A stretch of 64,000 bases of DNA from an uncultured Rikenellaceae bacterium (GTDB lineage Bacteria > Bacteroidota > Bacteroidia > Bacteroidales > VadinHA17): NCBI GenBank assembly GCA_963818525.1, contig CAWFSO010000005.1, positions 870,272-934,271 of the forward strand, in the 5' to 3' direction. The notes beneath the pieces are model-generated. The model did not search any database, had not been told where the DNA came from, and saw only the letters and a list, made by a program, of their open reading frames with translations. Positions 14,537 through 64,000 of the stretch are shown here, piece by piece; positions within the stretch are counted from its first letter, which is position 1, and each line of letters begins with the position of its first letter. A program made the translations under genes and the position numbers.

Positions 14537-14555
14537 TAACAGGAACAAGAATTTG

Positions 14556-34884: not shown

Positions 34885-35381
34885 TTGAAAAAACTTCCTT
34901 GATTCAGACCTTACAATAAGTTGATGCAACTATTTGTCAAATTTCACGGACCTCTTCGTCAAAAGAATTATGGTTTTGATCAAACGCCGTTCCATATAGG
35001 TAAGATGATCAACAAGTATGATGAGTCATTGAGAATAAGGGATAAACAGCGGCGGAAGGAACATATTTTCTGCCATCCGGACATACTCCGGCTTGCATAC
35101 TCCCGTTTCTTTTGTGTATTTTCACATTTGAAAAGTTTTGTGCATTGCCTTGTCCGACCAGGCATCTTTAAGTAAATAATTGGCTGAGAGTTAAAGCTGC
35201 AACAAGGTTGCAAATCGCTCAATCATAGACTTTTACAAAAGAATGCGACTGGGACTGACGGGGCGGAAGCACGCCCGGACGTCAAGCGAGGGGTCTTTAA
35301 ATAAATAGCTAAAGTAGAGATTAAACTACTTGTACTAAAGTAAAGCAGATGGCTGCAGTTTACCCGGCATGGATACTTAAT

Positions 35382-37020
35382 ATGAGGAAGAAAGTCCTCG
35401 AATTCTTCAACAGGCATTCTTTGCCCCGTTGGATGGTGTTCGCAGTGGATTCCGGCACCGTATTCATGGCTTTTTTAATAGCCTATCTGCTGCGGTTTAA
35501 CTTTATTTTGCCCGGAGACAAAGAGCACATTTTTATCTACCAGGCTTTGATTGCCACGGCTGTTTATACCGGATTCAGCCTGGTATTCCGGTCTTATTCC
35601 GGTCTTCTCCGCCACACAACGCTTACCGATGTCACACTGGTATTTGTGGTAACCACCTGCTCTTCTATTAGTTTGGTTTTTCTTTCCTTTCTCGGTCAAT
35701 GGCTTCACTGGGCTGACATTCTGGCTATTCCGCAATCGATCCTCCTGATACATTATGTGGCCGTTTCCTTAATCCTGTTTTTTGGAAGGATCTTAATCAA
35801 ACTGATATTTTTATTTGCGACCGGCAGTTCGCTCAATAAAAAAAGAGTAATGATTTATGGCGCAGGTGAGCTCGGTTTCGTTGTAAAAAGAGTTGTTCTG
35901 AGTGATCCGCGTTATGGCTTCCATGTTTCAGGATTCATTGATGACGACAAAACCCTTCAGGGTAAAAAGATAAATGGTATAAGCGTTTACGGTCCTTCGG
36001 CTCTTTCCGCAGAATTTATTGAAAGGAACAAGATTGAAAGTCTGATTATTGCTATTAAGGCCTTGAGTGTTGATAGAAAGAGCAGCATAATTCGTTCCTC
36101 AGTTAATCTCGGACTTGAGGTCCTTGATACTCCGGAGGTTGATAAGTGGATGAGCGGGCAGCTCAGGATGCCGCAGTTTAAGAGAGTTGACCTGGAGGAT
36201 CTCCTGGGACGGGACCCCATTAAATTGAATATCAATCTTATCAAGAAGGGTCTGGCAAACAAGACTATCATGATTACAGGTGCTGCCGGTTCAATAGGGT
36301 CTGAGATTGCACGACAACTGACCAGCTTCCAGTGCGATAAGGTGATCCTGGTTGATCAGGCTGAGACACCTTTATTTTATGTGCAGAATGAACTCAGGGA
36401 AAAGTTCCTCGATGTAAGGTTCCAGATAGTGCCGGCGGATGTGACCCATGCTGCCAGGATGGATCAGGTCTTCAGGGAATTCCGGCCCGATATCGTGTTT
36501 CATGCAGCTGCTTATAAACATGTCTCCCTGATGGAGGAGAATCCTCATGAAGCTATAAGGGTTAATGTAGGAGGGACCAAAACAGTCACTGACCTTGCGA
36601 TCAAATACGAGGTGGAGAAATTCGTAATGATATCCACGGACAAGTCTGTTAATCCATCAAGTGTGATGGGCGCCTCAAAACGATTATGCGAAAAGGTTGT
36701 ACAGTCGAGGGCTCAGGCCGGAGGGCACAAGACCCAGTTCATTGTCACGCGTTTTGGGAATGTCATGGGTTCCAACGGTTCAGTGATACCTATTTTTGCA
36801 CGGCAGATCGAGAACGGAGGCCCGGTAACGGTGACCCATCCTGAGGTGTACAGGTACTTCATGACGATCCCGGAGGCATGCCAGCTGGTGCTGGAAGCAG
36901 GATTTATGGGAGTTGGAGGCGAGATCTTCGTCTTCGACATGGGACAGCAGGTCAAGATAGCTGACCTGGCAAAGGCAATGATAAAGCTGTCGGGATTCAT
37001 TCCCGACAAGGACATTCATT
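35382..37020 (+). CDS. Membrane-bound nucleotide-sugar 4,6-dehydratase (CapD/PglF/WbpM family), C terminus truncated at the junction
   Basis: 4 TM segments, IYGAG, TGAAGSIG, FHAAAYKHV, ISTDK, VRFGNV-like, RYFMTIPEA, FDMG. It stops at IPDKDI before the expected GLRPGEKL motif. Confidence 0.9.
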
Positions 37021-37030
37021 CAACCAGCAA
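37010..37030. other. Junction between Bacteroidota-like and Betaproteobacteria-like DNA
   Basis: Abrupt change in composition and gene repertoire; the dehydratase gene is broken here; no att site, IS or integrase is visible. Confidence 0.85.
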
Positions 37031-37297
37031 GCTCGCTGACGATTGCTCGCCTGCATTGCCGCCGGACTGCTGAGGTCGGATCGATACGCGTGCAAACAAT
37101 TCGAGTTGCGTGCGAGTGATCCGGTGTTCTTCAGTGAATTCAATCGATGGGCCGTCACGAGATGGACTGTTGATGACAATCCGGATGTTACGGTTGATGT
37201 GGATCGCTTGCAACGATAGGAACAATCATCTTGACTTCCGATTGTGCGAATCACAACAACAAATCGATGAACGGCACATCGAATTCACTTCAACAGA

Positions 37298-40297
<3,000 letters not shown>

Positions 40298-40596
40298 TTG
40301 TCTATCCTCTTGTAGCTGGTCGAAAAAACGTCCCGCAGATCGGGGCGCCGTCGTCAGGCGACTCGAATCGGCTGGCTCGTCGCGCACGTGACCCAGTTCG
40401 GGAACTGAGTGGAAAAACGACTGCTGGCTTGGCGGTCCCGGCGTCCGCCCGGCGTCTCCCAGGATCTGGAATCACCGCCGCGCGAGGATCATCGACGGGC
40501 GGGACTCCGGTTGTTTCGAGGGCTGAAGGTGGGGCAATCCGCACCGTATTTAGAGAAGTTGTTGTCACGGAATTTTTTACACAAAGGATCGCAGGC

Positions 40597-40755: not shown

Positions 40756-41349
40756 TCAGCAGCCATGGGCCTTGCAGGCCGAGTCGTGCTGAAACCTTGT
40801 GCAGGCGTGACCAGTCGAAGCAGGGACCCGGATCGACCTTGCGACCCGGCGCGACGTCGCAATGGCCCGCGACCTAGCGCGATCGGATAGCGTTGCGCAC
40901 AGCAGGGTCAGTACGCGCGCGAGCCGTCGGTATTGCGCCTCGCGTGAACGCGACGCCTGCCGTCGCCCTCGAGTTCGATGCCGATCGAGAAGTCGTTGCA
41001 GCGTTCGCCGGCCGAGGAACGTCGACGACGCCGGCATGCCAGGCGCGCTGATCGCAGATCGACGAACTGCACCAGTCTCGCCATGGCGCCGGATCAGGAA
41101 ATGGCGACGACACCGCGCAGGCCCGCAACGACGCGAAGGCCGGATGGCTGTCGCAATCGAGCGTGTTGGTGAACAGTCGTTCGATCGCGTCGCCGCAGAA
41201 ATCGGCCGGGCGGCAGGCTGATGTGGTGGATGACCAGCAGGTCGACCGTGCTGCCGCGGGGCGCGCGTCGTGATTGGGCGAGGGCAACCATCGCGCGCCG
41301 GGCAGCCAGCCCGCCGGTCGGGCCAGCGGCGGCAAGCGTGCTCAGTCAC
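40756..41349 (-). CDS. ampD: 1,6-anhydro-N-acetylmuramyl-L-alanine amidase (frameshifted)
   Basis: PSPNHDARP, LLVIHHISLPP, HFLIRR, RAWHAG and DFSIGIELEG recovered across frames. Confidence 0.88.
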   Translation of the reverse strand: MTEHACRRWPDRRAGCPARDGCPRPITTRAPRQHGRPAGHPPHQPAARPISAATRSNDCSPTRSIATAIRPSRRCGPARCRRHFLIRRHGETGAVRRSAISAPGMPASSTFLGRRTLQRLLDRHRTRGRRQASRSREAQYRRLARVLTLLCATLSDRARSRAIATSRRVARSIRVPASTGHACTRFQHDSACKAHGC

Positions 41350-41360
41350 GCCCGGGCCCG

Positions 41361-42899
41361 TCAGTTGATGTCGAGACGCTGCATCCGGTAGCGCAGCGCG
41401 CGGAAGGTGATGCCCAGCAGCTTCGCCGCGGCGGTGCGGTTGTAGCGGGTCTTCTCGAGCGCGCGCTCGATCGCCTCGCGCTCGACCTGGTCGAGATAGT
41501 CGGGCAGCGATTCCGGAATGCCGTCGTCGGCAGACTGAACGCACGGTGCGATTGAACTGCGGGTCGACCGGCGCGAGCCCGACCGGTTCCTCGGTCACGG
41601 CAGGTGTGCGTCCCACCAGCACCGGCGGATGCTCGACGGCGGATTCTGCCGCTCGTCGCGTTCGTATTGCGCGGCATCCGCGCCTCGGGCGCAGGCCGAG
41701 GTCTTCGACGTTGATCACCTCGCCGTTGGAGAACGCCAGGGCGCGTTCGAGGATGTTCTCGAGTTCGCGCACATTGCCCGGGAAACGCGTAGCTCTGCAG
41801 GTAGCGCGACGCGTGACCGAGGCCAGTCGCGGCGGCGTGCGCGAGCCCCGCGCGCGCCGCCAGCCGCGCGAGGATCGCATCGGCCAGCACCGGGATGTCG
41901 TCGCGCCGCTCGCGCAGCGGCGGCAGCTGCAGCTCGATGACGTTGAGCCGGTAGAAGAGGTCCTGGCGGAAGCGGCCGCGCCGCACGCACTGCGCCAGGT
42001 CCTGGTGCGTCGCGCTGATGATGCGCACGTCGACCGGCTCTTCGATCGTCGCGCCGACCTTGCGGGCACGCTTTTCCTGGATCGCGCGCAGCAGCTTGAC
42101 CTGCATCGCCAGCGGCAGGTCGGCGACCTCGTCGAGGAACAGCGTGCCGCCGTTGGCGGCCTGGAAGAAGCCGTCGCGCTCCTGGTCGGCACCGGTGAAG
42201 GCCCCCTTGCGGTGACCGAAGAACTCGGACTCCATCAGGTTCTCGGGAATGGCGCCGCAGTTGACCGCGACGAACGGGCCTGGCCGCGCGCGGCCCGATT
42301 CGTGGACCAGGCGCGCCGCGAGCTCCTTGCCGGAGCCGGATTCGCCGGTGATCGCCACCGGCGCCATGCTGCGCGCCAGCCGCAGGATCTGCGCGCGCAC
42401 GTCACGCATCGCCTCGGATTCGCCGAGCAGCGGCGCGCACGCGGCTCGACCGGCGCCGCGGCCTGGCCGGCACGCTGCGGCATCGCCGCGGCAGATTGCA
42501 CCGCCGAGCGCACCAGGTTGCGCAGCGCGTCGAGCGCGACGCGGCTTGGCCAGGTAGTCGAAGGCGCCCGCCTTCAGCGCGGCCACCGCATTCTCGGCGC
42601 TGCCGTAGGCGGTGATCACGGCCACCGGCGTGTTGGGATAGTCGGCGGCGATCAGTGTCGACCAGTTCGAGACCGTCGCCGTCGGGCAGCCGCATGTCGG
42701 TCAGGCAGAGCGCGTAGGCGTTGCGGCCCAGGCAGCGCACGGGCGTCGGCGAGATCGGCCGCGCAGTCGACGTCCAGCCCCATGCCCACCAGCGTGAGTT
42801 CGAGCAGTTCGCGGAGATCGGCCTCGTCGTCGACGACGAGGACCCGCGGAATGGTCCCGGCCCGGGACGCGTCCGACCCGACGGTTCACCCTGGCTCAT
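41361..42899 (-). CDS. pilR: Sigma-54-dependent response regulator (frameshifted)
   Basis: [52 protein letters not shown]-terminal LRYRMQRL. Confidence 0.85.
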
Positions 42900-44600
42900 G
42901 AGTTGAGTACCTGCTTCATTGCGCCCTTGGCTGCGTCGGAACGACGCGGATCGATCATGAATGCGCCGCTGTAGCGATCGCTGTTTCGAATACTCTGATA
43001 ACGGATACCGGCCCCATTGAGTGCGCTGAGCTCGCGCGCCAGATACAGCCCCAGCCCGGTACCCCGGGACTCGGTGGTGAAGAACGGCTCGAAGGCGTGG
43101 CCACGGCGTGCCGGGCCCAGCCCCGGACCATCGTCGGCGACGCTGAATTCTAGGCGACCGTCTGTCCAGCTACGCCACGCGATCCGCACCGCCCGGGCTC
43201 GTCGGAGGCATACCGCAGCGCATTGCTCAGCAGGTTCACCAGCACCTGGCGCAGCTGGTTCGAGTCGAAGCAGGATCGGCGCGTCGGTCTCGAGCGACAT
43301 GGCGATACGGTGGCGCTGCGCTCCCGACTGGACCACGAACTCGGGCAGGAACCGACTCAGGAACCGCGCCACGTCGATCGGCTCGTGCGCCGGGACGCCG
43401 CGCGCGCGATATCGACAGCACGTCTTCGACGACCCGGTCGATGCGCACCGTAGTTGGCCTCGACGATCGCCGCGACAGACGCTGCAAGCGGATCCGATCG
43501 AGCTGCTCGGCCAGCAGGCCGTTGGCATGACGGATCGCGGCCAGCGGATTGCGGATCTCGTGCGCGATCGATGCCGACAGGCGGCCCATCGACGCGAGCT
43601 TGAGCTGTTGCGCCCGCTCTTCGAGTTCGCGGAGGTTCTCGACCAGGATCACGAGTCCGCGCCACGCCGTCCGGCGCAGCAGACCGCACCCGGACCCGGG
43701 CCGCCTCGTGGGCCGACCCGGCGTGATCGGGACTCCAACTCGGCCTCGTCGGGTCGCCAACGTGTCGACACTGCCGCCAGTGCTGGTAGCGGTCGACACA
43801 GCACGGTCCAGCGCCGTACTGCGCAACGCTGCGAGCCGGCTGTGCCGCCCGGACCGTCGGTCCAGGCCCGGGTCGCCGAGCCCGAGCGATCTGCGCGAGC
43901 CGCCCGGTTCATCGTCCGCACGCGGCCATCGGGCGTCGACCACGACGCACCCCCTGCGGGCGCTCGGCGATCACCAGCTGCGTGACCGCGAGCTGGTTGC
44001 AGGTCCTCGCCGCGCGCCATGACGAGTGCCTCCTGTGCGGCCAGTCGGGTGGCCAGCCAGTTGACCGCCAGGCGGTCAGGAAACAGGCCGCGCCGATCAC
44101 GCCGGCCTGGGCGAACTGCGCCGTGTCGAGGCCGCGGCCGTCTGTCAGGCCCGAGCCGGACTCCGCCAGCAGCAGCAACGTGGCCATCGCAGCGAAGAAC
44201 GCTGCATATGCGCGTGAGGACAGGACGGCCGCGCCGGCCACTGACGCGATCATCAGCACGCCGAGGCCGCTCCGCACGCCGCCCGCGGCGTGCACGAGGA
44301 GCGACCAGCGCGACCAGGTCGGTGATCACATGGACGCAGCAACTGCCATGGAGACGCGGTCGCGAACAGTGCGAATGAACGAGCAGGTAGACGACGGCGA
44401 TCAGCACGTAGGCGAGCGCCGACCCGCCGGAAGAGCTCGGCTCGTCGACGCACGTCGCCAGCAGCGCTGCGCGCCGATGGCCGACACGGCGAGCGACGAG
44501 CATCAGCAGCGCGAGCACCAGGCGGGTCGCCGCGAGACGAGCCCAGCGACGTCCAGAAGGATTCGGGGTCGACGTCGAGCGGCCCGTCGCGGGCGATCGC
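42896..44600 (-). CDS. pilS: Sensor histidine kinase (frameshifted; start approximate)
   Basis: [41 protein letters not shown] and N-terminal TM helices; its stop overlaps the pilR ATG. Confidence 0.8.
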
Positions 44601-44629
44601 ACCAGGCGGAACAGCAGAAGGTCGGCCGT

Positions 44630-44862
44630 CCGAGCTCGACGATGCTCTCGAGGCAGTAGATGCGACCGCCGTGCGCGAACCGCTCGGAGCTCGGTACGTA
44701 GACGCCGCAGTCGCCGCGCAACGCGATGATCAGCTCGCGCTGCGCCTCGGTGCGGCCGCGGCCGGCCGCCTCGGTCTCCTGCGCTTGCGCCGTGAGTGAC
44801 GGCGTGCGACTCGCGCCAGACGATGGCGAACACGGGCGATCCAGACCACGAGCATTGCCCAT
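44630..44862 (-). CDS. PP0621-family small protein (frameshifted)
   Basis: Hydrophobic N terminus, CGVYVPSSE..GGRIYC..EH; sits between ypjD and pilS. Confidence 0.6.
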
Positions 44863-44910
44863 CAGGTCAGGAACCGCTCTGAGCGCCATCGGGATCGCGA
44901 CGCGGTCGGC

Positions 44911-45818
44911 TCAGACGCGCCGCAGGACCACTTCGAGCACGAAGCGGCTGCCCACGTAGGCGAGCAGCAGCACGACGAAGCCGCCAGCGTGGTCAGGCGC
45001 AGCGCGATGCGCCCGCGCCATCCCCAGCGCCAGCGACCGAGCAGCAGCGCACCGAACAGCCGACCAGGCGAATCAGCGCGAACACGGTCTTGTGGTCGAG
45101 CCGAAGCGGACGACCGAAGATGTCCTCGGAGAACAGACATGCCGCTAGTGCCGTCAGCGTGAGCAGCACGAAGCCGATCCGATGAGCCGGAACAGCACGC
45201 GCTCGAGCACCATCAGCGGCGGCAGCGCGTCGATCCAGCGCGCGAGCGGCCTCGCGTCGCCGGAGCGGCCGGTGCAGTCGCGCTCGGCGCCGACGCATCA
45301 GCAGCGCATGCAGCGCGCCAGCATCAGCACGCCGTAGGCGAGCGTGCCCGATCGAACAGGTGCGGCACGAACAGCGAGCCTGGCTCGCTCGACCTCGAGG
45401 ACGCTGTCCCGGAAAGAGCCACGGCAACGGAGCAGTGACCGCAGCGACCGGCAGCACCATCATGCGCAGGGCCTCGCGTGGGCCCGTCGGCCCCTCGAAC
45501 AGCAGCAGCAGCGACGCCGACCCAGATGGTGGCGGACAGGACGTGCGCGAAGCCGAAGCGGAAGCCGCGCCGTCGGACGCAATGGCCAGGTAGAGCGCCG
45601 AAAAATGCAGCGATGACCGCGACCAGCGGCGAGCAGGGCAGCAGCGGCCCCAGGCCGGGCGCTGACGCTCCAGCGCGTGGCAGCGCCGGCGGCGAGCCGC
45701 CCGGCGTAGGGCGTCCGTCGAGCGGCCATCACGGGCGGCCAGCGCAGCCTAGCCCCCACGCCGGCCAGGTAGAGCAGTGCGGGCGCAAGTGCGAGAGCGA
45801 AATCAGTAGAATCGTCAC
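44911..45818 (-). CDS. ypjD: Cytochrome c assembly family inner-membrane protein (YpjD/CcsA-like; frameshifted)
   Basis: [38 protein letters not shown]; divergent from ffh. Confidence 0.8.
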
Positions 45819-45841
45819 GCTTGCCAGTTTACTCCAAGCCC

Positions 45842-47218
45842 ATGCTCGAGAATCTCTCACCAGCGGCTTTCGCCGCGTCGTCAAGACCATGCGAGGCGAG
45901 GCCCGCCTGACCGAGGCCAACACGCAGGAGATGCTGCGCGAGATCCGCATCGCGCTGCTCGAGGCCGACGTGGCCCTGCCGGTGGTGCGCGACTTCGTCG
46001 CGCAAGGTCCGCGAAAAGCGCGCTGGGCCAGGAGGTGCTGCACAGCCTGACGCCGGGCCAGGCGCTGGTCGGCGTCGTGCACCGCGAGCTGACCGAGCTG
46101 ATGGGCGGCCAGGCCGCCGAGCTGAACTTCGCGACCACAGCCGCCGGCCGTGATCCTGATGGCAGGCCTGCAGGGCGCCGGCAAGACCACCACCGTGGGC
46201 AAGCTGGCGCAAGTGGCTGCGCGAGAACCGAAGAAGAAGGTGCTGACGGTGTCGCTGCGACGTCTACCGGCCGGCCGCCATCGAGCAGCTGCGCACGGTC
46301 GACCGCGCAGGCCGGCGCCGACTTCTTCGCGTCGACGCCGCGAGCAGAAGCCCGCCGACATCGCGCAGGGCGCGCTGCGTCTGGGCCACGACGCACTACC
46401 ACGACGTGCTGCTCGTCGACACCGCCGGCCGGCTGGCCATCGACGACGCAGATGATGGAGCGAGATCGCGGCGCTGCACGCGCAGCTCACGCCGATCGAG
46501 ACCCTGTTCGTCGTCGACGCGATGCAGGGCCAGGACGCGGTCAACACCGCCCGCGCCTTCAACGAGACGCTGCCGCTGACCGGCGTGGTGCTGACCAAGC
46601 TCGACGGCGACTCGCGCGGCGGCGCGGCGCTGTCGGTCAAGGCCGATCACCGGCAAGCCGATCAAGTTCGTCGGCGTCGGCGAGAAGCTCGACCGGCCTC
46701 GAGAGCTTCCACCCCGAGCGGATGGCCAACCGCATCCTCGGCATGGGCGACATCGTGTCGCTGGTCGAGGAGGCGCAGCAAGGCCGTCGACCAGCAGGCG
46801 GCCGAAGGACCTGGCCGACAAGCTCAAGTCCGGCAACCGCTTCGACCTGAACGACTTCCTGCAGCAGCTCGGCCAGATGAAGAAGATGGGCGGGCTGTCG
46901 TCGCTGGTGGACAAGCTGCCCGGCGCAGTTCCAGGCGGCCGCCGGGCAGGCCGACATGGACAAGGCGGAGAAGCGAGCATGCGGCGCATGCAGGGCATCA
47001 TCCACTCGATGACGCCCGGCGGAGCGCGCCAAGCCCGAGCTGATCAAGGCGAGCCGCAAGCGGCGCATCGCCACCGGCGCCGGCGTGCAGGTCCAGGACG
47101 TCAACCGGCTGCTGTCGCAGTTCGACCAGATGCAGTCGATGATGAAGAAGATGCAGAAGGGCGGGCTCGCGAAGATGATGCGCGGCATGAAGGGCATGAT
47201 GCCGGGCGGATGCGATAG
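45842..47218 (+). CDS. ffh: Signal recognition particle protein (multiple frameshifts)
   Basis: [48 protein letters not shown] and a Met-rich M domain. Confidence 0.95.
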
Positions 47219-47293: not shown

Positions 47294-48804
47294 ATGGACG
47301 GCACGCCGCGCGCGGACGAGTCCGGCGCTCCGGCATCCCGACGGAGCCGCGCCGGCACGCCGTCGCCGGCGGGCTAATCGGCTGATCAGCGCAGCCTGGC
47401 CGCGGATCCGACGGGCGGCTGGTGACGCGACCGCCGACACCATGCGCGCCGTTCCTCCTCGACTGGCGCAAACGCTGGCACGGCAATGCGCTGGCCGTTG
47501 CGTAGCCCGCGACTCGGTCGACGACGTCCGGCGGATCGTGCGCTGGTGCGTCGAGCACCGCGTCGACGCGATCGTGCCGCAGGGGGGCAACACGGCCTGT
47601 CGGCGGATCGACGCCGGCACGAGCCGGCCGCGGGTGGTGCTGTCGCTCGCGCGGCTGAACCGGGTCCGCGCGTCGACATCGTCAACGACACGATCACCGT
47701 CGAGGCCGGCTGCATGCTCGCCGAGGTGCAGCACGCCGCGCGCGACGCGGGCCGGCTGTTCCCGTTGTCGCTGGCCGCCGAAGGCAGTTGCACGATCGGC
47801 GGCAATCTGTCGACCAATGCCGGCGGCATGCCGGTGCTGCGCTACGGCAACGCGCGCGAACTCTGCCTCGGCCTCGAGGTGGTGACCGGCGACGGCGAAG
47901 TCTGGAGCGGGCCTGCGCGGCCTGCGCAAGGACAACACCGGCTATGACCTGCGCGACCTGTTCGTCGGCGCCGAGGGCACGCTCGGCATGATCACCGCGG
48001 CGACGCTGAAGCTGTATCCGCAGCCGGCTGCGCAACTGACCGCACTCGCGGCGGTGGCGTCGCCGCGCGCCGCGCTCGAGCTGCTGGGGCTCGCCCGCGC
48101 CACCTCGGCGCCGGCGCTGACCGCGTTCGAGATGATGTCCGACCTGTGCCTGGACGCTGGTCGCACGCCTCTTCCCGCGAGTATCCGAAGCCCTTCGCCG
48201 ACCCGCACCCTACTACGTGCTGCTCGAGTGGTCCGATGCCGAGAGCGAGGCGCACGCGACCGAACGTTTCGAAGCGCTGCTGGAGGCGGCGATGCGCACA
48301 GGCATCGTGTCGGACGCGATCATTGCCGACTCGATCGCACGCAGCACATCGTTATGGGCGTTGCGCGAGAACATCTCCGACGCCCAGGCCGCCGCCGGCA
48401 AGAACATCAAGCACGACATCTCGGTACCGATCTCAGCCATCGCCGACTTCGTGGAGCAGACCAACGAACAGCTGATGCCAGCGGTTCCAGGGCGTGCGGA
48501 TGGTCGTGTTCGGCCATCTCGGCGACGGGAATCTGCATTACAACGTCTCGCCTTCCGTCGATCACGAAGGCGCCGAATTCGAAGCCGCGTTCTCGCCCTC
48601 CAACCCGAGATCAATCGGCTCACGCATGATGCCGTCGTGAAATTCGGCGGCTCCATTTCCGCCGAGCACGGCCTGGGCGTCCTGCGCCGCGACGAATCGG
48701 CGCGCTACAAGTCTGCACTGGAAATGCGCATGATGTACGCGGTCAAGGATGCCCTCGATCCGCATGGCTGCATGAACCCCGGCAAGGTGCTGCCGCCACG
48801 GTGA
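47294..48804 (+). CDS. FAD-binding oxidoreductase (D-2-hydroxyglutarate/D-lactate dehydrogenase-like; frameshifted)
   Basis: VPQGGNT, SCTIGGNLSTNAGG, LRKDNTGYDL, KHDISVP, GSISAEHG, MNPGKVL. Confidence 0.88.
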
Positions 48805-48823
48805 GTCTGCGGCGCTGCGGCGA

Positions 48824-50403
48824 TCACGCCGTCGAAATCAGATAGGGCATGAAGTAGGTCGCCAGGCTCAGGACCAGGAAGAAACCTGCCATGTCGGTGA
48901 GTGTGGTGAGCAGCGGGCCGCTCGCCACGGCGGGATCCTGATCGAAGCGCTTGAGCAGTAGCGGGATCACGCCACCGAGTGACACGGCGATGACGGTATT
49001 GACGGCGAGTGCCGTACCGATCACGACACCCAGCATCGGAATGCCCTTCCAGACCCAGGCGACGAAACACACCAGGCTGCCGAGCACCGCACCATTGATG
49101 ACCCCCAGGGACACCTCCCGGCTCCACACTCGGACGACATCGATCGGCTTGACGACGCCGAGCGCCAGTTCACGCAGCGATACCGCCACTGCCTGGTTGC
49201 CCGAGCAGCCGCTCATGTCGGACACCATGGGCAGGAAGGTGGCGATCGCGATCACTGCCGTCAAGGTCGCCTCGAAGGAAGAGATCACGCTGGCCGCAAT
49301 GATGTTCAGTCCGATGTTCACGGTCAGCCAGACCAGCCGGCGACGCGATCGCAGCAGCAACGGCATCGAGCGCAATTCGTCGCCGACGACACCATGGATC
49401 TTGTAGCTCTCGAGTTCCGAGCGTTCGATCACGGCGGAATCGATCGCATGGCGTGGACGATGCCCAGCATCGAGCCCTCTTCATCGCAGACCGGAATGCT
49501 CAGGAAGTCGTACTTGTCGAACAGATCGCGAAGTTCGGCGAGTTCCATGTCGACCGGTGCGGTCATGGCCGGACTCATCACCTGATGCAGCGGCGTATAC
49601 CGGCTCGCCGAAAGCAACCTGGAGAGCGCAGCGTAGCCGACGACACGGCCCGCGTCATCGAGCATGTAGGGGCTCTGGCCCAGGAATTCGTCGCCCTCGG
49701 CAAGTCGGGCCAGCACCTTGCCGACCGTGTCGTTCTGCGAGAACGTCAGCGACTCGGCGACCATCAGTCCACCGGCGCAATCCGGATCGTAGGCGGCGAG
49801 GCGCCGCACCTCCGCGGCCGCTTCCGGCTGCATCTCGGCGAGAATCGCTTCGGCGCGGTGCACCTCGCCGATCAGGTCGGCCTGCGTGTCGGACTCGAGC
49901 TGGCCGATGATGTCCGCGGCGCGGTCGGTGCTCAGGTTGTCGACGAAGCTCGCGGCCAGTCCGGTCGGCAGTTCGTCGATCAGGTCGGCCGCCACCTGCA
50001 GCGGGGCTTCGCTCAGGATCTGCGTGCGCTCGTCTTCATCGAGCCGCAGCAACGCGCGAGTACCTTCGCTCGGCGGCATTTCATCGAGCAGCAGCGCAAC
50101 GGCATCGACTTCGTCGTTGGCGAGCAGCTGACTCATCCGCTCCCAGGGTCGATCGTCGTTCCGCTCATCGAGCTCGGCAATACGGTCAACGACCTCGGCG
50201 ATACGCTCATCGACCTCATTGGTACGGTCATCGCCCTCGTCGATGCGCTCGCCACCGCGATCACCGGTGACGTGGTTATCGTTCGACGCGTTTGGCGACG
50301 GGGCGCTGTCGGGCGCGGCGCTGCGACGTTCGCCCGCATCGGCCCGCACGTGACGAACGGACGCCTCCGCGTCGGGCAAGATGCCTGGAGGGGTCTCTTT
50401 CAT
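48824..50403 (-). CDS. mgtE: Magnesium transporter MgtE (one frameshift near 49440)
   Basis: MgtE_N helices, CAGGLM, CBS pair, [21 protein letters not shown]. Confidence 0.9.
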
Positions 50404-50558
50404 GTCGAAGGTCGGGGTGCGAAGAGGAGGATGCGTTCGGCAGCGACCCGCCTGCGTCATCGACGCATGCTCACCGCCACGCGGACAACATAGCCAAAAA
50501 GCATTGCACGGACAATGTTTATTTGGCTTAATCGCCGGACGTTCCGGCTTTTGGCCAC

Positions 50559-51062
50559 ATGGTGAATCCGTCCAACGACGACGAAACTCCGCCCGGCGAG
50601 CCTGCCGGGCACGCAACCGTTGCCCACGCCATCGTCGGCTGGCGCGAATGGGTCCGTCTGCCGCGACTCGGCGTGGGCCGCATCAAGGCGAAGATCGATA
50701 CCGGCGCACGTACCTCCGCCTTGCACGCCACCCATATCGAATCGCTCGATCGCGACGGGCATCCGTGGGTGCGCTTCCGGGTCTACGACGACCATCGCAA
50801 CCCCCTGCACTATGTCGTCGTCACGGCACGGTTGCGCGACGTGCGCAGTGTGCGCAATTCGGCCGGGGTACAGGACCAACGCCCGGTGATCCGGACCGAG
50901 ATCCGGCTGGGCACGCTGGAGTTTCGTGCCGAACTCACGCTGGTCGAACGCACCGACATGGTTTTTCCGATGTTGCTCGGTCGCTCGGCCCTGCGGACGG
51001 CCGGCGTGCAGATCGACCCGGCACGCTCGTTCGTGATGCGACGTCGAAGTCGACCTGCCTGA
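50559..51062 (+). CDS. RimK-associated 'ATP-dependent Zn protease' (retropepsin-like, RimB-like)
   Basis: [36 protein letters not shown]. Confidence 0.88.
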
Positions 51063-51077
51063 ACGGCCCGACGCACC

Positions 51078-51983
<906 letters not shown>

Positions 51984-51987
<4 letters not shown>

Positions 51988-53034
51988 ACCCGATGCGAGC
52001 CCCGTTCGAACTCGCCGGTGAACAGATCCCGGCCGGCACGCGCCGCATCATCACGATCCCGGTCAGCGTGATGTCCGACCACACGCCGGTCGGACTGAAT
52101 GTGCAGGTGCTCCACGGTCGCGACGACGGTCCGACGCTGTTCGTCAGTGCCGCCATCCATGGCGACGAGATCATCGGTGTCGAGATCGTCCGTCGGCTGC
52201 TCGCCTCCGCGAAACTCAATCGCCTGCGTGGCACCCTGCTGGCCATTCCGATCGTCAACACCTACGGCTTCATCAATCACTCGCGCTATCTGCCCGACCG
52301 GCGCGATCTCAACCGGTCGTTTCCCGGCAGCGGCACCGGTTCGCTGGCAAGCCGACTCGCGCACATCTTCCTCAACCAGATCGTGCGCAATGCCGACGTG
52401 GGGATCGACCTGCATTCGGCCGCGATTCATCGCACCAATCTGCCACAGATACGCATCGCGCCCGACAGTCCCCGACTGCTCGCACTGGCCGAAGCGTTCG
52501 GTGCACCGGTTGTGCTGGTCAGCCCGTTGCGCCAGGGGTCGCTGCGCGACGCCGCGCGCCGGCACGATGTCGACATGCTCCTGTTCGAAGCGGGTGAAGG
52601 ACTGCGCTTCGACGAAGCCGCGATCCGCAGTGGACTCGGCGGCACGCTGCGCGTGATGGCCCATCTGGGCATGATCCCCGCAAGCGGTATTGCCGCACCA
52701 CCGGCGCGGCCCATCCATTCGCAGGCCAGCTACTGGGTGCGCGCTTCGGCCGGGGGATTGCTGCGCAGCCACCGGACCATCGGCGAGATGGTCACGCCCG
52801 AGACCTTGCTCGGCGTGATCGCCGACCCGTTCGGCGCGATCGCGGGACCGGTCAAGGCCACCTGGCCGGGATTGATCATCGGTCGGGCCAATCTGCCGCT
52901 GGTCAATGAAGGCGACGGATTGTTCCATATCGCGCGCCTGGCCGAGTCGGGCAGCCGGCCGCGCCCCGCAATGCCCGAACCCGACCTCTCGAACCGGCGT
53001 CGATCCGCTGTTCGACGAAGACGACATCATCTGA
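51984..53034 (+). CDS. Succinylglutamate desuccinylase/aspartoacylase (AstE/AspA, M14-like) family protein
   Basis: [31 protein letters not shown] overlap with rimK; likely end [13 protein letters not shown] at 53034 after a frameshift. Confidence 0.88.
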
Positions 53035-53072
53035 TCGCCGAGCCACGATTCAACCCTTCGACAGAAGCCGCC

Positions 53073-53900
53073 ATGAGCCAACGCATTCTGCTGATCAATC
53101 CGAATACATCGACGTGGGTGACCGACGCGCTGGTCGCGCAGATCGATCTTGTGCTCGGCGAGACGTCGGACATCGAGTTGACCGCCGCGACCGCAACGCT
53201 GGGCGCGAGCTACATTGCCTGCGAGGTGTCGTATGCGCTCGCGGCCCATGCGCTGCTCGACAGTTTCGCCGCACATTACGACCGGCATGACGCGGTCATC
53301 GTCGGCTGCTTCGGCGACCCCGGAACGGCCGCCCTCGCGCAGATCTCGCCGGTGCCCGTGATCGGCATGGCCGAGGCCGCGATGCACGAAGCGAGTGCCG
53401 CGGGCCCGTTCGCCATCGTCACGGGCGGCGCCGCCTGGCAGCCGATACTGCAGCGACTCGCCGCAGCGGCCGGCTTCGGCGAGCTGCTGGTGCACATCGA
53501 GACCGTGGCCAGAAGTGCGGGGGAACTGGTGCGCGACCGCCCTGCGGCACTCGCGTTGCTGGCCGCGGCATATTGCGAAGGCGAAGTCGCGCGGCAGCGA
53601 AGCTGTCATTCTTGGCGGCGCGGCATTCGCAGGCTATGGCGACGAGCTGGCGCGGATCACCCACCTCCCCGTGATAGACAGCGTTTCGGCTCTGGCGCGC
53701 GCCGTGGGAAGTCGTCTGCGGCAGCCGGTAGCCGGTGCGAACCACGATTCGTCGCCGCAGGCCGCAGGTGGTCCGGCCGTCTATTCGGGCCTTTCCGAAC
53801 CACTCGCCAGACTGCTCAACGCAGCGCGGTCGAGCGCGATCCGGCACAATGAAAGCCCAGCGTCGCCAGGCGGCGAGCACCTTGTCCGGGTAGGTCGCGC
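53073..53900 (+). CDS. Asp/Glu/hydantoin racemase-family protein (frameshifted; end approximate)
   Basis: ILLINPNTS, VGCFGDPG, PVIGMAEAA, ILGGAAFAG, PVIDSV. Confidence 0.8.
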
Positions 53901-54465
53901 TGCCCAGTGATCCGTTGTATCGACCCAGCGCGCGAAACAGGTTGCCCGACTCGAGGTCCAGGTAATGGCGAAGAATCGTGCAGCCATAGCGAGGTGGTGC
54001 GCATCGCGAACAACGACGACACCTCACCGTCGCCGATCAACTCGGACCAGAACGGCATCACCTGCATGTAGCCCCGTGCGCCGGCAGTCGACACCGCATA
54101 ACGGCGGAAGTTGCTCTCGACCTGGATGAGGGCCAGCACCAGTTCGGGCTCGAGGCCTGCGCGCTGCGCCTCGTAACGCGCGGTGAGCAGGAACTCGATA
54201 CGCTCCTCATGGGTCGGTTTCCATCGTCTCGGCAGGCGTTCGGCCATCTGCGCGAGCCATTCGACGCGATGCAGCAGTGAGTCGAACACCGGCTCCGGCG
54301 CATGTCGATCCGACACGGCAGCGCGCAGGGCGGTGCGCACCGCATCGGCAAGCGGTTCATATTGCTGCTGGCCCGCCAGGACGTGATGCGGCCCGGCGGC
54401 AACCAGCGCGAGCAACAATGCCGGACCGAAACGGACGGATCACAGGATCGGCGCGAGCAATTCAT
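53850..54465 (-). CDS. Lytic transglycosylase (SLT domain; frameshifted; end approximate)
   Basis: LIQVESNF, AVSTAGARGYMQVMPFW, ALGRYNGS. Confidence 0.88.
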
Positions 54466-54566
54466 GGCAACGAGCGGGCAGAGCCCTGTAGGGGGTGGGC
54501 CTGTGGCAGGCCCGAACTCCTCAGATTAACGGGCAGCCACACGCGCGACGTGTGAAAGTCGCCTTG

Positions 54567-56415
54567 TCATGACGAGCGGCCGGCCTCCGCCGATCGGTGG
54601 GCGCGGTCCGCCAATACCCTGGCAACGATATCCGCCACCGGAACCTGGACCGTCACCAGACCGCGGCGTGCGACCAGTTCCACCTGCTGCTCCGCGAGCC
54701 CGCGATCGCCGACATTCACGCGCAGCGGTACACCGATCAGTTCCCATTCGGCAAACATGACACCGGGTCGTTCCCCCCGATCGTCGAGGATCACGTCGAC
54801 GCCGGCCGCGAGCAACGCCTGATAGATCTGCGTGGCCGACTCGCGCACCGGTGCCGACTTCGCATATCCCAGCGCGCAGATCACCACTTCGAACGGTGCG
54901 ATACCCAATGGCCAGATGATGCCCCGCTCGTCGTGGTTCTGCTCGATCGCCGCGCCGAGCAGCCGCGTCACGCCGATGCCGTAACAGCCCATTTCGAAGG
55001 GCTTGGGCTTGCCGTCCTCGTCGATGAACGTCGCGTTCATCGCCTGTGAATACTTGGTGCCCAGATAGAACACGTGGCCCACCTCGATGCCGCGCTGAAT
55101 CGCCAGTTCGCCCTTGCCGCAGGGCGAAGGGTCTCCCGCCACGACGTTGCGAATGTCGGCGACGAGCACCGGCGCCCCAGGCGTCGCTGCGTCGATCGCC
55201 ACCGGCTCGGGCAGGTCGCGCCCGAAATTGACGCCGGTCAGGTGATAGTCGACCTCGTTGGCGCCGCAGATGAAATCGCTCATCTGTGCAACCGTGCGGT
55301 CGACGACCACTCGCACCGGCTTCGCGGTGCGGATCGGGCCCAGATAACCGGGCGGGCAACCGAAGGTCTCGATGATCTCGGCCTCGGTCGCGAATCGAAA
55401 ACCCGCGAGGCCAGGGAGCTTGCCCGCCTTGATCTCGTTCAGGCCGTGATCGCCGCGCACCAGCAGCAGCCAGATCGTGGTGGCGGGTATCGTCGTCGCG
55501 CCGGGGCTGTCGTTGCCCGCGCCGGTTCCGTGGCTCCCATGCTCACCGGCCGGCGCGTCGACCGCCAGCACCAGCGACTTGACCGTCTTCGCCAGCGGTA
55601 CGTCGAGCAACGTGGCCACGTCTTCGCATCTCGCGGCGCCAGGGGTCGGGGTGCGTGTCAGCGCCTGCGTGGCAGCGCCGCGCGCGTTCGACCGGCGCAA
55701 TCGCCTCGGCGAGTTCGACATTGGCCGCATAGTCGGAACCAGGGCAATAGGCGATCGCATCTTCGCCGGTATCGGCGATGACCTGGAACTCGTGGCTCGC
55801 ATCGCCGCCGATCGCACCGGTGTCGGCTGCGACCGGCCGGAATGTCAGGCCGATGCGCTCGAATATGCGGATATACGCGTCGTACATCACCTGGTAACTG
55901 GCGAGCGCCGCCGCCTTGTCGCGATCGAACGAGTAGGCGTCCTTCATCGTGAATTCGCGTCCACGCATCACGCCGAAACGCGGCCGACGTTCATCGCGGA
56001 ACTTGGTCTGGATGTGATAGAAGTTCTTCGGCAGCGACTTGTAGCTGCGCAACTCCTGCCGCGCGATGTCGGTGACGACCTCCTCGGACGTCGGCTGGAT
56101 CACGAAGTCGCGCTGGTGGCGATCGCGGATCCGCAACAGTTCGGGCCCGTATGCCGAGAAGCGCCCCGACTCCTCCCACAGTTCTGCAGGCTGCACCACC
56201 GGCATCAACAGTTCGATCGCGCCGGCGCGGTTCATCTCTTCGCGGATGATCGCCTCGATGCGGCGGATCACGCGCAGGCCGAGCGGCATGTATGAATAGA
56301 TGCCGCCGGCAAGTCGCTTGATCATGCCGGCGCGCGACATCAGTTGATGACTGATCACCTCGGCATCGGCGGGTGCCTCTTTCTGTGTCGACAAATGGAA
56401 CTGACTGGCCTTCAT
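54567..56415 (-). CDS. proS: Prolyl-tRNA synthetase (one frameshift near 55690)
   Basis: [47 protein letters not shown] and the anticodon-binding domain. Confidence 0.96.
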
Positions 56416-56624
56416 GGGAATCCGGGGATGGGAAGAGGGGAAAGAGGAATGTGCAAGAAAACGGAAGAAACCATGCCGGCAGCATCTCAGGTGGCGCCCG
56501 CATGGCGTGGCGGCGGTGTCGAGGAACATGGCGGCCCGTGCACGGCGCGCCGCAGCGCCTGCATCGCGCCGTGCGATATTGCCCGATATAATGGTTGCAA
56601 GTTTAGATTAAATGGGGTCTTGCC

Positions 56625-57248
56625 ATGCTCGACCGAGACGGCTATCGCCCCAATGTCGGAATCATTCTGGCCAACCAGAGAAACGAGGTTTTCTGGGGCA
56701 AGCGGATTCGTGAGCATGCCTGGCAGTTCCCGCAGAAGGAGGCATCAAACGCGGGGAAACGCCCAGAGCAGGCCATGTACCGTGAACTCCACGAGGAAGT
56801 CGGACTACGTGATCCACATGTCGAGATCGTGGCACGCACCCAGAGCTGGCTCCGCTACGAGGTGCCGGATCGGTGGGTACGGCGCGAATGGCGTGGACAA
56901 TACCGCGGGCAGAAGCAGATCTGGTATCTGCTGCGCCTGACCGGACGCGACTCCGACATCGACCTGCGCGCCTCCGGCCATCCGGAATTCGATGCCTGGC
57001 GTTGGAACAGCTATTGGGTACCACTTGACGCAGTCATTGAATTCAAGCGCGACGTCTACAAGCGTGCGCTCAACGAACTCGCGGGTCATCTGTTCCCGGG
57101 GGGCGGTGTGACTGAGGCGGGTGCGTCGGGCGCTGGTGCGTCGGACGCTCGTGCGGCGGCGGGTGGCGCGTCAAGCGATGGCGCGGCGGCGGTTGGCGCA
57201 TCGGACACCGGCGCGGCCGTTACTCCGCAGACGAACCCCGAGCCCTGA
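56625..57248 (+). CDS. rppH: RNA pyrophosphohydrolase
   Basis: [18 protein letters not shown], Nudix [23 protein letters not shown]. Confidence 0.94.
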
Positions 57249-57252
57249 TCGC

Positions 57253-57900
57253 ATGGCTGCGCTTGCGTATCGTGCGGCCGGCTGGCTGCCGGCGGCCGGG
57301 TCCGCGTTGCTGATCGGGTTGGCAATGCTGATCGGCTTCGCGTTCCATGGGTGGACCGCAAGAGCCGGCATGCTCGACGGACCACCCGAACCCGAACCTC
57401 TCGCGGCACCGGCGCCCGGAGGAGCGGCATCGACGCCCCGCTCCGCACCCGCAACCAAACCCGAGGCGGTGCTTCCCCAACCGATGCCGGTGCTGCGTCG
57501 GTTTGACGATCTCGAACCGTTCTCCACCGATGGCGACTCGTCGAATCGCTTCGCATTCGATCCCGATTCGATCCGCGTGAAGAGTCCCTTCGTGATGCTG
57601 ACGATCGCGGTGCGCAGTCCCGCCGGGGCGACGACGATCGGCTACCACGCGATCGACTGCGCAACCGCCCAACAACGGCTGCTCGCGTTGGCCGACACGT
57701 CTGGCCAGTGGCAGGTTGCTGACAGCCGCTCACCGTGGCGGTTGATCATGAACGGGGATACCCGCAATCGGCAGTACCACGCGATTTTCGCGGGTGTCTG
57801 CCGGGTCGGCAAGAAACCTGCCGACAGCGTCGGCGAGATGGTGCGAACCATCCGAGAGGGTCGCCGGTACAGCGGCAGTGATCGTCGCCGTCGATCGAGT
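57253..57900 (+). CDS. CNP1-like family protein (end approximate)
   Basis: FAFDPDSI, VRSPAGA...YHAIDCAT; typical position after rppH. Confidence 0.6.
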
Positions 57901-57930
57901 CATCAACCATCCTGCGAGTGGAGGCGGTCG

Positions 57931-58875
57931 ATGAGCCAGCGTCCCGCCATTCTGTTGATGTGCCCGTTGTTCGAAGGCACGCGAACGGGTGCTCGACCTA
58001 CGCTACCAGTGCCACCGACTCTGGCAGGCCGCCGATCGTGCGGCACTGATTGCCGGCCTCGCCGATCGTGTCGAGGCGGTGGCCAGCATGTCGGGCGAAC
58101 GAGTCGATCGCGCCACTCGTCGAAGGGTTGCCGCGCCTGAAGCTCGTGTCGAATTTCGGCGTCGGTCTCGACACCATCGATCTTGCGGCCTGCAACGAAC
58201 ATGGCGTCACGTGTGCAACACGCCCGACGTGCTGAACGAGGAAGTGGCCGATCTCGCGCTCGGCCTGTTGCTCGCGACGATCCGGCAGATTCCGCAGGGC
58301 GATCGTTTCGTTCGCGAGGGCCGTTGGCGCGACGGTCCCATGGCGCTGACCCAGACCTTGCAGAACCGTCGCGTCGGGATTGTCGGCCTCGGGCGGATCG
58401 GACGTGCGATTGCACGACGCTGCGAGTCGTTCAACACGACCCTCGGCTATTACGGTCCTCGCGCGAAAGCCGACGTGCCGTATCGATACTTCGATCAGGT
58501 GGTCGCACTGGCCGACTGGGCCGATGTGTTGATTGCCGCCTGTCCCGGTGGTGCGGCGACGCGGCACATCGTGTCGCGTGAAGTGCTCACCGCGCTTGGG
58601 CCGGAAGGCGTGTTCGTCAACATCGCGCGGGGATCGGTCGTCGATCAGGCCGCGCTGATCGGAACTGCTCAGGCGGGCGTGTCGGCTCGGCGGGCCTCGA
58701 TGTGTTCGACAACGAACCGAATGTACCGCAGGCTCTGATCGATCTGCCGCATATCGTGCTGCAACCGCATCAAGGCAGCGCGTCGGTAGCGACACGCACG
58801 CGGATGGGCCAGCTCGTGATCGACAATCTGGCTGCGTACTATTCCGGCACGCCCTTTCTTACGCCGGTCGGTTGA
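57931..58875 (+). CDS. D-2-hydroxyacid dehydrogenase (glyoxylate/hydroxypyruvate reductase-like; frameshifted)
   Basis: NFGVGLD, NTPDVL, GIVGLGRIG, VNIARGSVVD, PHQGSAS. Confidence 0.88.
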
Positions 58876-58942
58876 TCGGCCCCTGGACGATCGAATCGCC
58901 TACGCGCCGTTGAATCGACAACAGTGATCGGACTGGCCCGGG

Positions 58943-59048
58943 CAGTCGTAGCGAACATGGTCAGTCGTAGCGAGCATGGTCAGTCGGGCCGAACGAAGTG
59001 GTCGAACCAAACATGATCAGTCGGACAGAAAATCATTAGTCGGACCGA
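58943..59048. repeat. Degenerate 19-bp tandem repeat, about 5.5 copies
   Basis: CAGTCGTAGCGAACATGGT, CAGTCGTAGCGAGCATGGT, CAGTCGGGCCGAACGAAGT, GGTCGAACCAAACATGAT, CAGTCGGACAGAAAATCAT, TAGTCGGACCGA. Confidence 0.75.
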
Positions 59049-59085
59049 CCCCGCGCATCGAACGCGTTATTGTCCGGCCCAACTT

Positions 59086-59846
59086 TCAGTAGACGGCGCG
59101 ACCGCCGGAGAGATCGAAGACCGCGCCGGTCGAGAACGAGCATTCCTCCGAGCACGAGCCAGGCGATCATCGCCGCGACCTCGTCGACGCGGCCGAAGCG
59201 GCCCAGCGGGATCTTCGACAGCATGAAGTCGATGTGCTGCTGGCGTCATCTGGTCGAAGATCGGCGTCGCGACGGCGGCCGGCGTCACGCAGTTGACGCC
59301 GGATGCTCGGTACGCCGCCAGTCTCCTTGCCGAGCGACTTGGTCAGCCCGATGACGCCGGCCTTGGAGGCGCTATAGGCGCGACGCATTCGGGATTGCCC
59401 TCCTTGCCGGCGATCGAGGCGATGTTGACGATGCGGCCGTAGTCGGTCTGCGAGCATCATCGGGCACCGACGGCCCGGTTGCAGAGGAACACGCCGTTGA
59501 CGTTGATCTCGAGCACCTGCCGCCATTCGGCCGGTCGTATTCGCAGGTGGGCTGATTGGGCCCGGTGATGCCGGCGCTGCAGACGAGGATGTCGATGCGA
59601 CCGAAGCGGCGCGACGGTATCGGCGGTGGCGCGCGCGACGCACCGAGGCCGCGTCGGTGACGTCGACCTCGACCGCCGGTGCCCCCCGGACGACCGCCGC
59701 CAAGCCTCGCGCGCGGCCTGCGCCTTCGGTCCCAAACGGCGACCCGGGCGCCGCTGGCGGCGAATCGCTGCGCGACGCCGAGTCCGATACCGGAGGCACC
59801 GCCGGTGACGATCGCGCTGCGGCCCGCGCAGGTCGATCTGGTTCAT
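59086..59846 (-). CDS. SDR oxidoreductase (frameshifted)
   Basis: AIVTGGASGIG, YSASKAGVIGLTKSLGKE, KIPLGRFG, FDLSGGRAVY. Confidence 0.85.
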
Positions 59847-59942
59847 GGCCGCTCCGTTGAGCGTCCCGATGCGCCGGTGCGTAGGGTTCGATGCGAGTAC
59901 AATACCGCGAGATGTTGCCGGCCCTGTCAGGGGGAGTTTCGC

Positions 59943-60916
59943 ATGAAAGTCCTGTTCACCGACCACGACATGATCGACATCTCGCTCGAGCGCAGCTCCT
60001 CGCCGAAGCCGGCATCGAGCTGGTCGAGGCCCAGTGCAGGAACGAGGAGAAGTGATCCGGATGGCCGATGTCGACGCGCTGCTGATCCGTTCGCCCCGGT
60101 CGACGAGCGGGTCTTCGTGCGCGCCCAAGGTCGGCATGGTCGCGGATCGGCGCCGGTTACGACACGATCACGTCGACGACGCGACCCGCCATGGCGTATG
60201 GGTCGCGAATTCGCCGGACTACGGGGTCGGCGAGGTCGCGACCCACGCGCTCGCACTGATGCTGGCGGTGCTGCGCAACGTGGTGCGCTACGACCGCGAC
60301 ATCCACGACGGCAGGTGGCACTACACGACACCGGGGGTGATCCCGCGGGCGTCGAACCTGACCATCGGCATCCTGGGCCTCGGGCCGCATCGGCAAGCGC
60401 TTCGCACACCTGTCGCGCAACATCTTCAAGCGGGTGATCGGGTGCGACCCCCATCTGATCGACGGCGATTTCCCAGCCTACGTCGAGCGCGTGAACCTCG
60501 ATGAGCTGTTCCGGCAGGCCGACGCGGTCTCGATCCACTGCCTGCTCAACGAGGAGACCCGCGGCATGGTCGACGCCCGGCTGCTGCGGCTGATGAAGCA
60601 GGGCGCCTATCTCGTCAACACCGCGCGCGGCGCGATCGTCGACATCGACGCGCTGACCGCGGTGATGCGCGAGCATCGCCTGGGCGGCGTCGGTCTAGAT
60701 GTGCTGCCGATCGAGCCGGTGCCGGACGACCTGCCGCTGCTGGAAGACCGCCGCGTGCTGTTCACGCCGCACGCCGCGTTCTACTCCGCCGAGTCCGAGA
60801 TCGAGCTGCGCCGCAAGGCCGCGACGAATATCGTCACCTGGATGCGCACCGGCCGGCCCGACTATCCGGTCGTGCCGGGCACCCGACCTCCGCCCGGTCT
60901 CAGTCGTTCGAATTGA
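59943..60916 (+). CDS. CtBP-like D-2-hydroxyacid dehydrogenase (frameshifted)
   Basis: NSPDYGVGEVATHA, GILGLG, VNTARG, TPHAAFYS. Confidence 0.85.
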
Positions 60917-60992
60917 CCGATCCGGGCACCGGCGTTCATGATGCCGGAGTGCGTACCCGTCGTGACAATGAAAAATAATATGGAGCCTTCCA

Positions 60993-62256: not shown

Positions 62257-62303
62257 CTGGTCCGTGTCCGGCTGACTGGTCCGTGTCCGGCTGACTGGTC
62301 CGT
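62250..62303. repeat. Perfect 19-bp tandem repeat, about 2.8 copies
   Basis: Unit CGGCTGACTGGTCCGTGTC; the first copy contains the fccB stop codon. Confidence 0.9.
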
Positions 62304-62357
62304 TTTCGAATGACCGCTGCGGGTTCGGCCGACCTGCACGTCTTCGGCTGACCAGCC

Positions 62358-63713: not shown

Positions 63714-63723
63714 GCGCGTCCGA

Positions 63724-64000
63724 TCAGTCCTGCGCGCGCGCGAACACGTAGCCCGCACCGCGCACGGTGATCAGGCGACGCGGGCGCGGCGGATCGTCCT
63801 CGATCGCCGCCCGGATCTTGCGCCACATGCACATCGATGGCGCGATCCTGCGCTTCGCCGCCTTCGGCCCCCATCAGCGAGAACAGCTGTTCGCGCGACA
63901 GCACACGGCCGGCTCGTTCGGCCAGCACCAGCAGCAGGTCGAACTGGCGCGCGGTCAGCACGCGCGCTCGCCGGCCACGCGCACCTGGCGCGCGCCGCGA
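63724..64000 (-). CDS. OmpR-family response regulator, C-terminal winged helix (partial, frameshifted)
   Basis: LTARQFDLL, GRVLSREQL, DRAIDVHV, ITVRGAGYVFARAQD. Confidence 0.88.

Follow-up and report, generated by a model that had tools for sequence, protein, structure and literature searches.

The window (the whole stretch of 64,000 nt that was analysed) is the segment 870272–934271 of contig C5 (937,087 bp) in the source genome assembly, G000, a species-representative genome of 3.84 Mb in 10 contigs with ~50% GC, rated as 97.3% complete and 2.06% contaminated. The window lies inside this single contig, and there are no Ns in any of the 10 contigs; from the contig size and the indel pattern we infer that the assembly is long-read based. 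The Bacteroidales label of the host agrees with a T9SS sorting domain encoded in the window and with the way in which two close homologues of its CapD protein are named (a third close homologue carries the label Spirochaetota).

Genes on the two sides of the junction

Two groups of genes meet within the window (Table 1). A preliminary description of this DNA placed T9SS and FISUMP genes to the left of a junction in capD and an nrdA-ampD-pilRS-ffh-proS-rppH series to its right, and both groups are found where it placed them, the former with matches to PF18962 and PF09603; the names pilR and pilS for the regulator and the histidine kinase we take from the position and order of the genes. Gene-level taxonomy switches at the junction, with the T9SS domain and orthologues from the genus on the left and a betaproteobacterial nrdA on the right. 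The Fib_succ_major and T9SS genes that flank capD on the host side adjoin capD in relatives of the genus too.

Table 1. Features around the junction (positions in the window)
Feature	Position	Strand	Remarks
Fib_succ_major (FISUMP) protein gene, host	29717-30997	-	PF09603
T9SS-sorted Ig-domain protein gene, host	32624-34675	-	T9SS C-terminal sorting domain, PF18962
Host capD/PglF-type nucleoside-diphosphate sugar dehydratase	35349..37018	+	residues 1-556 and two bases of codon 557
Spurious 18-aa tail, capD frame reading through into foreign DNA	37017..37073	+	in 0/119 listed homologues
Chimeric junction	37018..37019	.	last host base 37018, first base without host match 37019
Spacer 3' of foreign nrdA, 279 bp	37019..37297	.	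49.8% GC; no family or homologue found
Class Ia nrdA (PRK07207 type), betaproteobacterial	37298..40301	-	20-21 frameshifts
ampD, sigma-54 response regulator, sensor kinase, membrane-protein gene	40782..45672	-	9-13 frameshifts each
Second ffh copy	45830..47210	+	86% identical to a Burkholderiales protein; 20 frameshifts
Rest of foreign block: glcD-like, mgtE, rimB/rimK, succinylglutamate desuccinylase-like, lytic transglycosylase, 2-hydroxyacid dehydrogenases, sulfide:quinone reductase-like, histidine kinase	47486..64000	.	
proS, foreign	54628-56419	-	
rppH, foreign	56625-57248	+	

On the host side of the window, the genes at 12408–16662 and 31099–32385 are split into short ORFs: alignments reveal one frameshift at 15536–16662 and two at 31099–32262, and several short ORFs lie at 12408–15536. 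These broken ORFs likely represent residual sequencing errors. Elsewhere in the assembly, the small contigs C6 and C7 are near-copies (91–98% identical) of a stretch at C1:27497-35714, probably redundant haplotype or error-rich duplicates of it. We also observed a ~240-bp repeat that starts with GCTAAC and ends with GTTAGC (presumably attC-like ends), with 63 same-strand copies at G000:C1:1163643-1229407 and C2:1170069-1170884 (L166); the gaps between copies measure 277–6222 bp, and in 61 out of 62 gaps the longest ORF is on one strand. The 3' end of C2 overlaps this array, and a tyrosine recombinase gene ~3 kb from that end scores below the integron-integrase cut-off. In its layout, the array resembles a large integron-like set of cassettes, here in a Bacteroidales genome.

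Truncation of the host dehydratase gene

The capD ORF (35349–37073, plus strand) encodes 574 a.a. and ends with KLSGFIPDKDI followed by 18 unrelated residues, and the break is inside codon 557. The protein is 80% identical to an orthologue in the genus that has a 647-aa open frame, and its match to relatives reaches residue 556. That the gene is cut mid-domain, as the preliminary description had stated, is seen from the Pfam match of the ORF, which covers only model positions 1–256 of 293 in PF02719 (Polysacc_synt_2); about 90–100 C-terminal residues are lost, including the GLRPGEKL motif with which, according to the same description, CapD/PglF proteins continue. This motif indeed follows the break in the relatives: all 14 aligned loci have a G-R-GEK motif there (GLRPGEKL, in one case GLRQGEKL), and, among the best 120 of 7,953 protein matches, GLRPGEK is present in all 119 listed homologues and the 18-aa tail in none of them. 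One homologue (P0025), which shares 98.3% identity with the host protein over 346 residues, extends 99 residues beyond the break. A search of the G000 genome with the 89-aa C-terminus of a relative's CapD (tblastn) gave no match at E≤1 for the missing 3' end of the gene.

The host protein thus resembles the CapD/PglF-type 4,6-dehydratases (PF02719 with CoA_binding_3 or PglD_N) in its membrane N-terminus and Rossmann domains, and full-length relatives share 80–98% identity with its residues 1–556; they have, however, the last 90–100 residues with GLRPGEKL, and the host ORF has neither these nor a complete PF02719 domain. The truncated protein forms a one-member cluster on one contig and is recorded on the 937,087-bp contig in NCBI/ENA. 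Rather than a short variant, the 574-aa product is likely an artefact.

The position of the break is supported by related genomes. In a comparison of 19.8 kb of window DNA with 65 genomes of the genus, 12 genomes gave 13 DNA matches whose last base is exactly 37018 (C5:907289), and no match continues beyond it. Contigs of two read runs from two studies (X5 and X3) also diverge from the window right behind 37018: they are ~95% identical to the end of capD (9 differences in 176 nt and 3 in 63 nt), and their loose ends behind this position translate to (Q)IVYTGLRPG, i.e. the continuation of capD. These contigs come from related strains in other samples and do not prove which allele the source population has. 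No loose end is listed at the junction for the contigs of runs X4 and X6. The contigs of all four runs (X5, X3, X4 and X6) have a depth of zero over 37030–37330, although a contig gap is no proof; and no piece bridging the junction is among those listed for the six runs available as contigs (X1–X6), which we do not count as evidence.

The composition of the DNA changes in steps: GC content is 41.2% for 1–37018, 46.6% for capD, 49.8% for the 279-bp spacer and 67.0% for the remainder. The jump from AT-rich to GC-rich DNA in the preliminary description is therefore real but does not fall on the junction base; as the spacer is at 49.8% and the 67.0% begins only past it, the composition step appears ~280 bp past the true break. 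The tetranucleotide profiles of the halves, which had been proposed for comparison, also differ: the distance is 4.0–4.8 for the tail (the foreign block from 37019 to the contig end), whereas the core averages 0.95 and does not exceed 3.18. The spacer itself is likely donor intergenic DNA. Three candidate frames in it lack Pfam matches and any nrdB-like similarity, and a search for the donor's own locus with a 20-base pattern from the spacer matched one metagenome contig, by chance, since blastn finds no homology between that contig and the window; the donor's own continuation past the junction was not found by this search.

The foreign block and its frameshifts

The foreign block is 29,799 bp long and reaches the contig end, with 2.8 kb of it beyond the window, and its gene content is housekeeping. 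A segment of nrdA retrieved 80 loci, titled as betaproteobacteria (77 loci), proteobacterium (two) and Gammaproteobacteria (one), in agreement with the betaproteobacterial origin first suggested for the right half. Compared with a Burkholderiales contig (G077:C2), the tail gives 12 blastn blocks of 70–84% identity, conserved in order and strand, from nrdA to the contig end; judged from its sequence, the tail is a colinear block of Burkholderiales core chromosome. When the first 20 kb of the 29.8-kb tail were compared with the genus, 57 out of 60 genomes matched, with pieces of at most ~480 nt at 65–86% identity among the matches listed; nearly all of the listed matches (four candidates per genome) are in ffh or the sigma-54 regulators, and none of the 60 genomes has more than short conserved fragments of this DNA.

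Some of the foreign genes duplicate functions of the host. An intact ffh of the host lies on C2, which makes the copy in the tail redundant, and C8 has an intact 904-aa frame for a ribonucleotide reductase large subunit. On C1, a class II synthetase frame of 492 aa is a candidate for the host proS, an identification that we infer from its length; the proS in the tail would then apparently be a second copy. The preliminary description had pointed to the absence of nrdB behind nrdA. No nrdB was found, neither within the 279 bp between the nrdA stop and the junction nor in the G000 genome, but as an argument this is weak: of the 45 relatives in which both genes were detected, 20 have a gap of at least 279 bp between them. 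Among the 80 loci, 19 have no full nrdA, and 16 of the 61 with a full nrdA have no nrdB call; in G077:C2, a gene scored as nrdB follows nrdA by ~200 bp.

Frameshifts, counted by frameshift-aware protein-to-DNA alignment, separate the two sides. There are 85 frameshifts in 11,958 nt for nine genes of the tail (20 each for nrdA and ffh), with no in-frame stops; a wider run, in which some alignments overlap, gave 126 frameshifts in 18,719 nt, with all 13 alignments affected, 78 of the shifts being single-base insertions, and one in-frame stop. By contrast, the host genes left of the junction have five frameshifts in 18,854 nt (none in capD), and the control, G077 against other Burkholderiales, has three in 23,410 nt. 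This amounts to ~7 frameshifts/kb for the tail, 0.27 for the host side and 0.13 for the control, a 25-fold jump across the junction. We consider that essential genes with indels but no stops are better explained by a consensus built from thin coverage and left unpolished than by decay following a transfer. Within the tail, the stretch 53843–57120 has four frameshifts in ~3 kb, far below its flanks, as if slightly more donor reads covered it.

A second join and the origin of the contig

The other end of C5 has a join as well. The first 87,184 bp (C5:1-87184, loci L096–L100; the head) have 62% GC and are a tetranucleotide outlier, with genes including glnE, mutL, chorismate synthase, a DDE_5 transposase and a CHAT/TPR protein; mutL is redundant here, as the host carries another copy on C1. 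Matches from nine out of 40 genomes of the genus start at C5:87184-87185 (the junction, at L100:7184), and none lies before it. This join cuts a host peptidase gene after AAAGMVEYF (we take the peptidase, from its motif, to be of a papain-like family), and the remainder of that gene was not found in G000. The host genes near this join have 2.8 frameshifts/kb, so that a high error density signals thin coverage rather than foreign DNA in itself. At C5:88084-90544 (L100:8084-10544), for example, the host genes for UDP-glucose dehydrogenase and UDP-GlcNAc 2-epimerase have three frameshifts each, which suggests low coverage at the host end by the second join.

A single donor for head and tail was considered: against five betaproteobacterial genomes the head matches in patches, mostly at 64–77%, whereas the tail is colinear at 70–84%, and at the sequence level the head donor does not look like the tail donor. 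Nor was an adapter or other element common to the two junctions found (only chance words of 8–12 nt), and a scan for further internal foreign blocks gave just one marginal 2-kb window in the remaining genome. Two independent joins that cut genes, at both ends of C5, point to the assembly as their source and not to the organism.

Genuine transfer of the DNA, in all its forms together, is very unlikely. In one form, illegitimate recombination would recently have inserted 30 kb or more of betaproteobacterial chromosome into capD, and the insert would then have decayed. In its favour, the deposited contig reads through without a gap or an N, capD lies in a variable polysaccharide locus (20 out of 64 genus genomes match at E≤1e-60), and no contradicting source reads were seen, the source reads themselves not being found among the 23 listed runs (none holds half of the window's words; the best share is 0.19). 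But ~7 frameshifts/kb with in-frame stops almost absent is unlike pseudogene decay, the core genes are redundant, no mobility gene was found in searches for tyrosine recombinases and resolvases, host DNA never resumes and the 3' end of capD is missing from G000, the 60 genus genomes share nothing longer than short conserved fragments with the first 20 kb of the tail, and a second such event would be required at the other end of C5, all of which makes this form extremely improbable. Equally improbable is a recombinase-free capture of chromosome-scale DNA across phyla, which would have brought tens of kb of betaproteobacterial DNA into capD and then, from another donor, done so again at the other end of the contig.

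Genomic islands and integrative elements show an abrupt change of composition and taxonomy and a host gene disrupted at the border. Both are also seen at the junction, and the contig ends within the foreign block, its far end unseen, so that a mobile element (ICE, prophage or plasmid) with betaproteobacterial DNA as earlier cargo could have inserted into capD and have its mobility genes past the contig end. No integrase, resolvase or tRNA was found at the site, however, as the preliminary description had remarked for integrases and tRNAs: the G000 genome has three matches to the tyrosine recombinase family PF00589, none of them on C5, and none to the resolvase family PF00239, and there is no tRNA in the window. 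At this border of the block, whose other border would lie past the end of C5, no repeat in the genome spans the junction. The cargo is housekeeping only, and its order follows that of a Burkholderiales chromosome all the way from nrdA to the contig end; the host chromosome does not resume, and the 3' part of capD, expected to remain after an insertion, was not found in the genome; and sequence errors are concentrated in the foreign part, their density jumping at the junction. We regard such an element as barely credible. The same is to be said of a join introduced after the assembly step but before deposition, whether in scaffolding or by fusing two contigs end to end with no Ns between them. 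The join is abrupt and has no repeat or overlap, which speaks for that origin, but there is no N in any of the ten contigs and no positive sign of a join before deposition. Concatenated contigs, offered as one explanation in the preliminary description, are excluded for the window itself: it lies in one contig, C5, and the truncated protein is recorded on the contig at its full length in NCBI/ENA.

The contig is almost certainly a long-read assembly or read chimera that joins Bacteroidales and Burkholderiales DNA, an artefact in the form described, and the junction is not a real biological feature. Behind this verdict stand the break point, the intact alleles elsewhere, the class and synteny of the donor, the error step and the second join, all of them shown here. 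A chimera rather than horizontal transfer, the reading favoured from the start, is supported by the intact capD in near-identical strains, the 25-fold jump in frameshifts, the redundant core genes and the second foreign end. A chimeric long read, or a few of them, from two molecules that were ligated or were sequenced as a single one, would bridge the host locus, thinly covered at the join, to a rare member of the community; alternatively, the start may be an assembler path that rests on very few reads. The assembler would then extend into the few reads of the rare organism, giving an unpolished consensus. In the contig, capD is broken at 37018 and joined, with no shared repeat found, to a 29.8-kb piece of Burkholderiales DNA full of frameshifts. 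Binning would have kept the foreign end because 87% of C5 is host DNA.

Chimeras across phyla and domains are reported from long-read metagenome assemblies (bioRxiv 10.1101/2025.04.22.649783), and the markers named for them are GC shift, coverage, gene taxonomy and inventories of single-copy genes. The contig resembles those multi-phylum chimeras in having different phyla on one contig (three organisms are possible). Its GC content shifts, the taxonomy of its genes switches, and it has unexpected single-copy core genes that are redundant with those of the host (ffh, likely proS, and mutL in the head). In that study, break points were obtained from clipping and coverage of the source reads (PacBio HiFi); here, in contrast, clipping is seen by way of contigs from related strains, and frameshift density is an indirect proxy for coverage.

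About 117 kb of foreign DNA (87 kb and 30 kb), 3% of the genome, is hidden inside one contig of G000. The truncated CapD and at least one protein of the tail are already public as singletons and could pass for cross-phylum transfers or novel variants. The importance of the finding is one of data hygiene, not of biology: the foreign end of the contig ought to be cut off and not interpreted biologically, and the content of 37019–64000 in the window and of C5:1-87184 should not be credited to the Bacteroidales host.
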